A stretch of 64,000 nucleotides of DNA from Dictyostelium discoideum (taxonomy: Eukaryota). Position numbers and translations under genes: made by a program. Of the stretch, positions 7,670 through 12,114 are shown one piece after another. Positions within the stretch are counted from its first letter, which is position 1, and each line of letters begins with the position of its first letter. The stretch spans positions 3,328,001 through 3,392,000 of the forward strand of contig CM000154.2 of assembly GCA_000004695.1 (NCBI GenBank), read 5' to 3'. The notes below the pieces were generated by a model, which was not told where the DNA came from, made no database searches, and saw only the letters and a list, made by a program, of their open reading frames with translations.

Positions 7670-7909
7670 TCTAATTTATTTAATGTTTATAATACATTAA
7701 TTTTTATGTTTTTTAAAAAAAAAAAAAAAAAAAAAATTAAAAAAAAAAAAAAAAAAATTTCTATTTTTATTTTGATTAATAAAAAAAAAAAAAATTAAAA
7801 TAAAAAATTTCATATCTTGGGACTTATAAATAATTTTTAATTAGAATAAAAATAGAAATTCTTTTTTTTTTTTTTTTTTTTCACTTGCCTTTATGGCTTT
7901 ATAATTAGT

Positions 7910-8450
7910 TTTTTTTTTTTTTTTTTTTTTTTAATATTGGATTAACAAGATTGATATATGTCCATCTGTGTTAATACGATTTAATATTTATTTAAAGGCT
8001 TATCATTTAAGCTGAAGGGTTATTTTAATCATATGAATTGATCAAAAGATATAATATTTGGGAGAGATGATTCTGGAATACAATAGTAATTAGCTGTTGT
8101 TTTTCTTAGCTTGATCGTTGAAGTGAGAAGGATCTTAGGATCTTTGAAGTTATTATGGTCTTTTGCTGATAAGTTTTTCAGATCTTTTGCTTTTTTGATG
8201 TATTCTAGAGTGGCCAATTTGTGCCATTTCTTTAGAAGGGAGCTGTATGATAGTGATTCATCTGTTAAAGGATCTTCACTGTATATTTGATTGCAAATCC
8301 AAATCCAAATGTTGTGGAGGATAAGGGCCATTAGGTTTCTATATGCGAATGATCTGGTTAGATCATAGTCTATTGCTTTATAGTTCCATTCAAAGTATTC
8401 TTTGTGGAATCTGTGGTTGGCGTAATCTGCATTCACTTAATTAGTAAAAT
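7910..8450 (-). mobile_element. 5'-truncated non-LTR retrotransposon fragment: C-terminal ORF piece, ~100-bp 3' UTR and oligo(A) tail. It sits about 60 bp downstream of a tRNA gene and is probably TRE3-class.
   Basis: ORF 8029..8436 has GC about 33%, against <20% in the flanks, and C-ending codons (atc ctc cac aac ttc) atypical of Dictyostelium chromosomal genes. The element ends in A23 on the minus strand (plus-strand T-run 7910-7932). It sits just beyond the tRNA external B box, the known target zone of tRNA-targeted TRE elements. The family assignment is inferred from position and composition, not from recognised protein motifs. Confidence 0.45.
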
Positions 8451-8470
8451 GTTGTTTGGAAGTTGAGCTG

Positions 8471-8484
8471 GGAGTCGAACACTC
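8471..8484 (-). promoter_or_regulatory. External B box (ex-B) downstream of the tRNA gene.
   Basis: The minus-strand sequence GAGTGTTCGACTCC matches the Pol III B-box consensus GGTTCGANTCC at 10 of 11 positions. It lies about 30 bp past the tRNA terminator. Duplicated B boxes downstream of tRNA genes are an established Dictyostelium feature. Confidence 0.55.
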
Positions 8485-8503
8485 GACTTACGTACGGCAG
8501 CTC

Positions 8504-8511
8504 AAAAAAAA
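8504..8511 (-). terminator. RNA polymerase III oligo(T) terminator (T8) immediately after the tRNA 3' end.
   Basis: Eight A on the plus strand, which is eight T on the tRNA strand, directly following the discriminator base. Confidence 0.8.
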
Positions 8512-8601
8512 TGCCCGAGCTCAGAATCGAACTGAGGACCCTCTGTTATCGCTTTAGTACTAAGTACAAGACAGATATAATAACCACTATACGACACGGG
8601 C
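8512..8601 (-). tRNA. Intron-containing tRNA gene, 90 nt with a 17-nt intron after position 37. The anticodon is TGT (Thr) under canonical folding; a GTA (Tyr) reading was considered and is disfavoured.
   Basis: Hand fold of GCCCGTGTCGTATAGTGGTTATTATATCTGTCTTGTAC[intron]AACAGAGGGTCCTCAGTTCGATTCTGAGCTCGGGCA. Acceptor stem 7 bp with one U-U mismatch at 6-67. D arm GTAT/AGTGGTTA/TTAT. Anticodon stem TCTGT/ACAGA. Loop CUUGUA+A. T arm CTCAG-TTCGATT-CTGAG, a good B box. The A box is TCGTATAGTGG. Confidence 0.8.
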
Positions 8602-9195
8602 TTTTTGATGAAAAATTTAATTGTTATACCCTATTAAATACTAAATAAAAAATTAATATACTTAATGTTAGGGTGTCATATTCATTTGGAGTAAATAATC
8701 TGTGAACTTAAAAATCTCACAGCGGCTTAGAAAAAAACAAAAGTAATATTGATAATTCAATAAAAATCAAAAACAAAAATTTAAAAAAAAAAAAAAAAAA
8801 ATACCCAACATAAAATGAGAACAAGTATTCCAAGGAGAAACAACAATCCAAAATAAAGATAATTGGCAAAAATTTTGAATTCTCCAAAAAAAAATAATAC
8901 TGAATGGGGAATTAAAAAAAAAAAAAATATTATATGAAACTGTTGATTAAAAATACAATTTAAAAATTTATATACTTTCAAAATAAAATTAAATTTCCTT
9001 TTGTCAATATTTTTCTAAATAATGTTTAACCAAGTCAACTTTAAGTTAGTATTATTTTTTTTTATTGACAGAAATGATAAATATGAAAAAAAAAAAAAAA
9101 AAAAATTCATAAGCGATGAGTCCATAAAAAAAAAAAAATCATTTTCAAATAATTTCTTTTACTAAAAATTTTATTTGAAAATTTTCAAAAAAAAA

Positions 9196-9396: not shown

Positions 9397-10533
<1,137 letters not shown>

Positions 10534-10794: not shown

Positions 10795-12114
10795 ATGACA
10801 ATCACATTTGAAGTTTGTGATAATTTAGAATTAGAGGGAGTTGAAAATTTTTATTCATTTGATATTAAAATTTTTATAGAAGAACAAATTAATAAATCAA
10901 TTCCAAACACAACAGAAAGTTATGGTGAATTATTTAATCAATTTAAAGAGAAAGGAATAAAAGATTTAACAGAAATCCATAAATTAGTAAATGAAAAAAT
11001 AAAAGAAAATGATTTAAAAAGAAAATTAAAAATTGAAGAACTTTTTAAAAAAACAAATATTTTAAAATCAAGTTTAGATAATATAGGAGATAAAGAAAAA
11101 AAAGAAAATGAAGATTTAAAAATTATTGTTGGATATAATAGTTTTGTATACTCTGCGTGGGAAAGTTATAATAATCATAATCATTTAGTATTACGTCCTG
11201 ATAATATTTGGATGGCAATAGTTTCACAATTTTCATTTTATATAAATAAATATAATAAAGAATTACGTAATAAATTTGTAGATTTTCATGAAAAGAAAAT
11301 TTTACAAGTTTTTACAGATTATTCAATTTTAGATGGTAATGGTAATGGTAATGGTAGTGGTATCAGTGATGATATATCCTTTGAAAAATTAACAAATGAT
11401 ATGGTGGATGAAATTTGTAAAAATATTAAAGATCCATCAATTAGGGATTGGATAATACCATCATTTTCAACTACAACTTTATCAGATAAAATTATTTTCT
11501 CATCAGCATTAATGTCAACATTAAAAAAAGATTTCATTTATAGGTATGGTAGTAAATGTGGTTTACCAAAGGTTACATTACTTGGTACAGTTGATGATTG
11601 GATTCAATTAAAAGAAAGATCATTAAAATTAAAAGAATTCAATATTTTTGATAGTGATAGTAATAATAGTAGTGGTGACGGTGATGGCGATGAAAATTTA
11701 ATGAACAAATGGGTTGATAAATATTTATTAGAAATTTTAGATAATTTCATTGAATCATCAAATGGAAAACCAAATAAAACTTGGTGGAATCAAATCATTG
11801 ATTTTAGAGAACAATCTGGAAGTTCAGTTTTATCAGGTTGGTTATCAGCATTTTGTTTATTTAAGGATGATGGAAGTTTTGAAGATAATGCACATTTAGA
11901 TAGTCCTCAATTATATCCAGAAACTAAATGGCCAAAAGTTAATTGTATTTCAATTCCAAATGGTTTCATTTCAACTCCTATTCAATTAACTGATTCAAAT
12001 GGTAATATTTTTAATTCTCAATTATTTTCTGGTCATTTTGCTTCAAAAATAAAAAACAATAATACTTTAATACCATCATTAGATTGGTTTATTATTTCTA
12101 ATCTAGATATTTAA
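10795..12114 (+). CDS. Hypothetical protein, 439 aa, function unknown. It carries internal GNGNGNGSG and GDGDGD low-complexity tracts and a conserved C-terminal region with GKPNKTWWNQIIDFREQSGSSVLSGWLSAFC.
   Basis: Intact ORF with an AAAATG start. Its C-terminal ~130 aa are reproduced by a degenerate copy at 23960-24360. Confidence 0.75.
   Translation: MTITFEVCDNLELEGVENFYSFDIKIFIEEQINKSIPNTTESYGELFNQFKEKGIKDLTEIHKLVNEKIKENDLKRKLKIEELFKKTNILKSSLDNIGDKEKKENEDLKIIVGYNSFVYSAWESYNNHNHLVLRPDNIWMAIVSQFSFYINKYNKELRNKFVDFHEKKILQVFTDYSILDGNGNGNGSGISDDISFEKLTNDMVDEICKNIKDPSIRDWIIPSFSTTTLSDKIIFSSALMSTLKKDFIYRYGSKCGLPKVTLLGTVDDWIQLKERSLKLKEFNIFDSDSNNSSGDGDGDENLMNKWVDKYLLEILDNFIESSNGKPNKTWWNQIIDFREQSGSSVLSGWLSAFCLFKDDGSFEDNAHLDSPQLYPETKWPKVNCISIPNGFISTPIQLTDSNGNIFNSQLFSGHFASKIKNNNTLIPSLDWFIISNLDI

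Follow-up and report, generated by a model that had tools for sequence, protein, structure and literature searches.

Retrotransposons of the TRE3 class in Dictyostelium, which lack long terminal repeats (LTRs), integrate 40-150 bp downstream of genes for tRNAs and oriented as the tRNA is, targeting either the internal or an external B box (PMC5911963). By subfamily, the tabulated distances run from 14 to 228 bp in TRE3-A, from 34 to 188 bp in TRE3-B and from 14 to 305 bp in TRE3-C (Table 1 of PMC5006619). TRE5 elements are found upstream at a distance of ~50 bp and head to head, the 5′ end pointing towards the tRNA gene (PMC3159450), and DGLT-A is inserted upstream at 13-33 bp. We have analyzed a stretch of 64,000 nt of D. 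discoideum DNA (contig CM000154.2, positions 3,328,001 to 3,392,000; termed the window below, with positions counted from its first letter) that contains a single tRNA gene. The segment at 7910-8437 is very probably the tail of a TRE3-family element, inserted behind an ordinary tRNA-Thr(UGU) gene that has an intron, a terminator and an external B box (exB). It shares with TRE5 and DGLT-A the strategy of using genes transcribed by RNA polymerase III (Pol III) as safe landing sites. In contrast to those two, it lies downstream of the tRNA gene and is co-oriented with it.

This is known biology, at a known type of locus in a well-studied organism. It provides a textbook example of the 'safe-haven' strategy of Dictyostelium, in which Pol III genes serve as landing sites for retrotransposons in a gene-dense genome. 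The features of the locus are collected in the table. They were compared with loci labelled as follows: L002 is the window locus in the assembly of its own strain, and L004 is a different locus of that strain; L005 and L007 are the orthologous loci of two further D. discoideum strains (L007 being from strain ACTFIW), reached via a neighbouring gene of 859 aa; L006 is the orthologous locus in D. firmibasis, and L001 is from D. citrinum. The DNA of the window derives from an AX4-type strain of D. discoideum, and the neighbouring gene matches the AX4 gene DDB_G0289837.

Table. Features of the tRNA-Thr(UGU) locus, in the order in which they follow one another along the minus strand
Feature	Position	Strand	Remarks
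tRNA 5′ flank, ordinary AT-rich intergenic DNA	8602-8760		aligns to L005 intergenic DNA except for a 43-bp indel
tRNA-Thr(UGU) gene, 90 nt	8512-8601	-	ARAGORN Thr(tgt); Rfam RF00005
tRNA 5′ exon	8565-8601	-	anticodon TGT at 8566-8568
A-box-like sequence TCGTATAGTGG	8584-8594	-	within the tRNA 5′ exon
tRNA intron CTTAGTACTAAAGCGAT, 17 nt	8548-8564	-	ARAGORN -i; canonical 37/38 position
tRNA 3′ exon	8512-8547	-	ARAGORN -i
Internal B box GTCCTCAGTTCGATTC	8524-8539	-	consensus GTCnnnnGTTCRAnYC
Pol III terminator, T8	8504-8511	-	directly after the discriminator base
External B box GTCGAGTGTTCGACTC	8472-8487	-	starts at +25 from the tRNA 3′ end; exact consensus match
Target-site duplication (favoured reading), tRNA-proximal copy ACTAATTA	8438-8445	-	
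5′-truncated non-LTR retrotransposon fragment, very probably TRE3 family	7910-8437	-	same orientation as the tRNA
ORF2 tail, 135 codons	8032-8436	-	stop codon 8029-8031
3′ untranslated region, 96 nt	7933-8028	-	
Poly(A)23	7910-7932	-	
Target-site duplication (favoured reading), distal copy ACTAATTA	7902-7909	-	first A ambiguous with the poly(A)

The retrotransposon fragment and its relatives

The fragment comprises the last 505 bp of an element followed by A23. An earlier note on this DNA, made from the letters alone, had described a GC-richer open reading frame (ORF) of non-Dictyostelium codon bias, an untranslated region of ~100 bp and an A23 tail, and had taken these together as a 5′-truncated non-LTR retrotransposon in the zone used by TRE3. 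That description holds on each count. The GC content at third codon positions is 0.36 in the fragment ORF against 0.07-0.09 in two ordinary neighbouring host genes (the adjoining actin gene is at 0.33), and the untranslated region measures 96 nt before the A23. The note had looked to retroelement similarity of the ORF as one deciding point. Over the last 135 residues of the AX4 protein DDB_G0274837, which carries the reverse transcriptase (RT) domain RVT_1, the encoded sequence shows 100% identity; with the C-terminus of a second RVT_1 protein of AX4, DDB_G0285835, it shows 99%. The identity to the C-terminus of ORF2, the poly(A) tail, the duplicated target and the empty sites described below all bear out the interpretation.

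In a protein search homologues of the fragment ORF were found in Dictyostelium species only, in many copies. In longer relatives a CxxC...HLFFxC zinc knuckle is present on the N-terminal side of this region, and one relative joins an endonuclease N-terminus to the same C-terminal tail. A copy of ~5.1 kb in locus L003 contains ORF1 followed by ORF2 in the -1 frame, ORF2 beginning at the final nucleotide of the ORF1 stop codon and encoding endonuclease, RT and knuckle; this layout has been described for TRE elements (PMC5006619, PMC5911963). In DNA the window is 98% identical to the 3′ ends of longer copies, from 8438 through the poly(A). The seven 3′ ends examined all have the terminus ...CTTGTTAATCCAATATT, also written ...CCAATATT(A)n, with a poly(A) that differs in length between copies.

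The comparison with the TRE3 elements (TRE3-A/Tdd-3, TRE3-B, -C and -D) is close. The longer relatives have in common with them an L1-like ORF2 with endonuclease, RT and C-terminal zinc knuckle, and the full-length relative of ~5.1 kb is comparable in size to the published 5229 bp of TRE3-A and 5279 bp of TRE3-B. The fragment itself shares the poly(A) tail, the 5′ truncation and the target-site duplication, together with integration downstream, in the tRNA orientation and within the published range of distance. No feature tested departs from TRE3, the window copy being the last 0.5 kb only.

The position of the fragment also accords with TRE3. Its start lies 74 bp behind the 3′ end of the tRNA, at a distance of 95 bp from the internal B box and of 34 nt from the external one (the earlier note had put the latter distance at ~20 bp, which is too short), and the fragment is oriented as the tRNA. 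A copy of the same family lies 17 bp behind a tRNA-Ser(GCU) gene in L001 and another 89 bp behind a tRNA-Cys gene in L004, both co-oriented with the tRNA. These positions bear on whether the fragment might belong to another class of tRNA-associated element, i.e. TRE5 or the LTR elements Skipper-2 and DGLT-A. Each of them is clustered at the tRNA genes of Dictyostelium, Skipper-2 also downstream (PMC5006619), and the assignment to TRE3 was made without direct comparison to TRE reference sequences. However, TRE5 does not accord with a family that is downstream and co-oriented at three independent tRNA genes (in the window, L001 and L004), and the LTR elements have neither a poly(A) tail nor an ORF2 with endonuclease, RT and knuckle, all three of which are present in the relatives of the fragment. 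We therefore consider another class to be very improbable.

We note that the start points of the TRE3 tails at these three loci fall into an interval of ~45 bp, some 0.5 kb ahead of the 3′ end (at the equivalents of 8428-8463 in the window, at 3216 in L001 and at 8281 in L004). The clustering of the start points is possibly a sampling bias, because the loci were chosen via predicted proteins that cover the ORF. It could be imagined that the ~0.5-kb tails are a short non-autonomous derivative, or reflect a preferred stop of the RT, rather than random truncation, and, as a separate matter, that the intron of the Thr(UGU) gene may be a fixed feature of this group of dictyostelids not yet explicitly described; such a reading is unlikely.

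A very short relative may be present elsewhere. Past a tRNA-Ser(UGA) gene in L003 (~11560-11643, minus strand) the external B box GGTCGAAGGTTCGATTA runs directly into ATCAATATT and A20. This resembles the TRE3 3′ terminus AATCCAATATT followed by An, and may be a TRE3 insertion with extreme 5′ truncation.

The integration site and its empty alleles

The earlier note had suggested a search for duplications flanking ~7905 and ~8450, and the 8-bp sequence ACTAATTA is indeed found on both sides of the fragment, at 7902-7909 and 8438-8445. The orthologous loci L005 and L007 have the same tRNA gene, an external B box and one copy of CATTT(T)ACTAATTATAAA, and carry no element. They also share the distal flank, including a long A-run that corresponds to A20 at 7862-7881 in the window; since it is present at the empty sites, this run is ancestral. 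Thus two other strains keep the empty site, giving a clean view of the locus before and after a single TRE3 integration, in which 8 bp were duplicated at a point 34 nt past the external B box.

There is a complication in that the empty alleles contain a near-repeat of the target. In principle the two copies of the 8-bp sequence in the window could derive from this ancestral near-repeat (ACTAATTATAAA...GATAATTATAAA) instead of a duplication upon insertion. We reject this, as the distal copy in the window reads AC and not GA at the distinguishing position. A distal copy reading AC-TAATTA can be derived only from the first of the repeats, which favours a true 8-bp target-site duplication as judged from the alignment.

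A genuine host gene might alternatively be proposed, lying by chance next to the tRNA gene. The frame at 8029-8436 is intact over 135 codons, and it is part of an annotated gene model, ACTFIT_001254 (137 aa; L002 2861-3643, product P0028), which would be single-copy in this interpretation. Yet the sequence is multi-copy, both inside single Dictyostelium genomes and among them. It equals the C-terminus of ORF2 proteins that bear RT, and in the DNA its conserved 3′ terminus carries poly(A), with a target-site duplication on either side. It is missing from the orthologous locus in two strains. The model corresponds to ~8027-8809 of the window, where it covers the TRE3 tail, spans the tRNA gene and reaches an upstream ATG, so that splicing across the tRNA gene is needed to provide a start codon. 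The empty sites, together with the poly(A) tail in the genomic DNA, refute a single-copy host gene, which has virtually no probability. We infer that ACTFIT_001254 is an artefact of gene modelling over a transposon remnant. It should be treated as such a remnant in annotation; beyond annotation hygiene the locus has little importance. Many of the 'hypothetical proteins' among the homologues of the fragment are TRE3 tails too.

Several observations weigh against assigning the fragment to TRE3 as a simple insertion, and should be set beside the evidence given above. The 135-aa fragment itself matched no Pfam family, nor was any family significant in eight short relatives; the connection to RT is made solely via longer homologues, the RVT_1-bearing proteins of AX4 having been reached by a search with a relative of 492 aa. 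The TRE3 class was assigned from domain content, copy distribution and integration behaviour, at the level of the family and not of a subfamily (A-D). The sole tRNA gene found in L003 is on the opposite strand, 2.8 kb from tandem elements, and this locus is therefore uninformative on orientation. The empty alleles have 30 extra bp, with the near-repeat GATAATTATAAA, immediately after the target, indicating that the pre-insertion allele of the window lineage differed from them by an indel. Lastly, an empty allele of the AX4 type, CATTTTACTAATTATAAAGCC, was not seen in the two empty-site strains. Taken with the ORF2 identity, the shared 3′ terminus, the duplicated target and the position behind the tRNA gene, we nevertheless regard a TRE3-family tail as very probable.

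Given the class of the element, integration would have occurred by target-primed reverse transcription, with the element endonuclease directed to the site by the Pol III factor TFIIIC bound to a B box. Reverse transcription or the joining of the 5′ end would then have stopped early, and such an early abort would result in the 5′ truncation. With no promoter, start codon, endonuclease or RT, the remaining fragment should be inert.

The tRNA-Thr(UGU) gene, its intron and its external B box

tRNA genes were identified using ARAGORN, both with default settings and in intron mode (-i), and with the Rfam RF00005 covariance model (gathering score 29). The earlier note had placed a tRNA gene at 8512-8601 on the minus strand with a 17-nt intron after position 37, and had preferred Thr-UGU to Tyr-GUA. 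All of this stands: ARAGORN returns Thr(tgt) with the intron at 37/38 (reported as intron (38,17)), and the covariance model scores the sequence at 47.7 bits (E 2e-8), the orthologues scoring the same. Removal of the intron gives a mature tRNA-Thr of 73 nt. UGU falls at positions 34-36 in Infernal and ARAGORN alike, and the spliced 7-nt loop reads CUUGUAA. The acceptor stem begins with G1-C72 and the discriminator is A73; two pairs of the cloverleaf are non-Watson-Crick, namely U6.U67 (acceptor stem) and U13.U22 (D stem).

We compared the syntenic gene in four genomes, i.e. three D. discoideum strains and D. firmibasis. Thr(tgt) was called in all four by ARAGORN in intron mode. The 73 exon positions are identical throughout, while five of the 17 intron nucleotides (2, 3, 4, 7 and 13) vary. 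The flanks have diverged strongly, with only ~73% alignable. Exon invariance next to five variable intron sites, within diverged flanks, points to purifying selection on tRNA-Thr(UGU), and the gene is therefore presumably functional. The distribution of variation between exon and intron is that of a working intron-containing gene, so far as sequence comparison can tell.

The opposite interpretation would be a pseudogene, or a tRNA-Tyr(GUA) that has been misread, with no working tRNA-Thr. Introns are typical of tRNA-Tyr and atypical of tRNA-Thr in yeast, human and plants, and the Thr(UGU) isoacceptor is not known to have an intron in yeast, human or Arabidopsis. The two non-Watson-Crick pairs might be taken in the same sense, as might the failure of ARAGORN with default settings to find the orthologous genes, and the minimum free energy fold of the single pre-tRNA sequence, which is not a cloverleaf (z = -1.46); here we have given precedence to the covariance model. 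However, the covariance score is well above the gathering score in the window and in the orthologues alike, intron mode gives Thr in four genomes, and the absence of exon substitutions beside a variable intron indicates purifying selection. In eukaryotic tRNA-Tyr the first pair is C1-G72, whereas this tRNA has G1-C72 with A73. A GUA anticodon would moreover disrupt the register of the 5-bp anticodon stem and 7-nt loop. Tyr(GUA) is rejected because UGU occupies positions 34-36 in both programs and the acceptor stem starts with G1-C72, and we find a pseudogene or a misread tRNA-Tyr highly unlikely.

The intron resembles canonical introns of eukaryotic nuclear tRNAs spliced by the tRNA splicing endonuclease in its 37/38 position, its short length of 17 nt, and an invariant G, three nucleotides ahead of the 3′ splice site, for which C32 is a possible pairing partner. 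It differs in its host isoacceptor, Thr(UGU). The earlier note had called an intron in a Thr tRNA unusual. Relative to model organisms this is correct, although at this locus the intron is conserved from D. discoideum to D. firmibasis. No list of intron-bearing D. discoideum isoacceptors was found in the tRNA-seq papers and reviews examined, and a metagenome scan for additional Thr(UGU) genes with or without an intron gave no matches. Folding the anticodon arm together with the intron predicts a small anticodon-intron hairpin in all three D. discoideum alleles, with intron nucleotides 2-4 forming the loop. The predicted fold of the D. firmibasis allele lacks this hairpin; there the A-to-G change at intron nucleotide 7 would still permit pairing with U36. 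As the energies predicted (-3.2 to -3.8 kcal/mol) are weak, the structural reading of the anticodon and intron is tentative.

A motif TTCATCAAA is located at 8605-8613 (minus strand), i.e. at -4 to -12 from the mature 5′ end. Similar motifs precede two Ser(UGA) genes and the Thr(UGU) gene of each of the four genomes (the loci including L004-L007). This is probably a consensus of the Pol III start site or 5′ flank.

External B boxes have been described at 66-80% of the tRNA genes of D. discoideum (PMC3159450, PMC5911963); for the estimate of 66%, their position is given as ~41 bp downstream (PMC3159450). We scanned both strands of the window (128 kb) for the consensus GTCnnnnGTTCRAnYC (PMC3159450). 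There are just two matches, the internal box at 8524-8539 and the external box at 8472-8487. As the consensus occurs only twice in the whole window, both times here, the external match is not due to chance. The consensus is the published one, and the box lies a few tens of bp past the terminator as described. The earlier note had reported a T8 run followed by a near-consensus second B box. The T8 is at 8504-8511 (the orthologous genes have T5 at this point), and the box GTCGAGTGTTCGACTC is in fact an exact match. Its start is at +25 if taken from GTC or +32 from GTTC, compared with the published mean of ~41 bp, although the measuring points may differ. In a survey of nine tRNA loci the full consensus was present in six, with its start between +23 and +26, in agreement with the literature (PMC3159450). 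The core GTC....GTTCGA.TC is kept in a three-way alignment in which the spacer around it is scrambled, and by this comparison the external B box is conserved across strains and species as far as D. firmibasis, like the Thr(UGU) intron. The locus has the Pol III architecture usual in Dictyostelium: an A and a B box inside the gene, a T-run as terminator and, ~25-40 bp further on behind the gene, the external B box.

At the orthologous locus in D. firmibasis (L006 4378-4640) there is a GC-rich insert of ~250 bp located ~10-20 bp past the external B box. It is made up of two tandem tRNA-like units with A-box-like and B-box-like motifs, each followed by ggtcataccacgaRgtaacgtggtcataa, and ends in an A-run. 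The units are below the Rfam tRNA threshold. The insert may be a tRNA-derived element resembling a short interspersed nuclear element (SINE), occupying the same downstream zone.

The upstream flank and neighbouring sequences

On the other side of the tRNA gene the earlier note had seen a possible remnant of a second element at 8665-8735. Such a remnant could be, for instance, the 3′ tail of a TRE5 ending in ...cacagcggcttag and an A-run. The stretch is ~60-130 bp upstream of the tRNA, in the general zone of TRE5; it is slightly richer in GC than its surroundings and is followed by A7, and 43 bp of the window sequence in this region are missing from L005. Against this, ctaagccgctgtg (minus strand) aligns to the intergenic sequence ccaagatgttgtg of L005, with the T/A run present in both. 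BLAST comparison with the rest of the window and ~85 kb of Dictyostelium loci, which included TRE copies but no TRE5 or DGLT-A references, detected no similarity. The stretch has no ORF longer than 30 aa and lacks a poly(A) of the type found on real copies. The suggestion was thus not upheld, there being no repeat or coding signal in what aligns as intergenic DNA, and a second remnant is improbable. The 43-bp segment missing in L005 (8660-8702) follows a short inverted repeat CTGTGA...TCACAG, and is probably an ordinary indel.

In L007 (306-4465) the actin gene and the tRNA gene are ~4.2 kb apart, compared with 0.6-0.8 kb, and beyond ~-15 of the tRNA the sequence is unrelated to that of the window. 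The extra ~3.6 kb upstream of this tRNA gene contains a poly-Q ORF and an ORF of 161 aa, and no RT or integrase ORF. In the window the GC-rich block at 9400-10500 (GC 0.38-0.47) is no mobile element but an intact actin gene of 376 aa at 9403-10533 (plus strand). In D. firmibasis an RT-coding non-LTR element (L006 20-1597, minus strand) is located ~2.6 kb upstream of the tRNA gene, and is 36-38% identical to ORF2 proteins of the TRE3 type.

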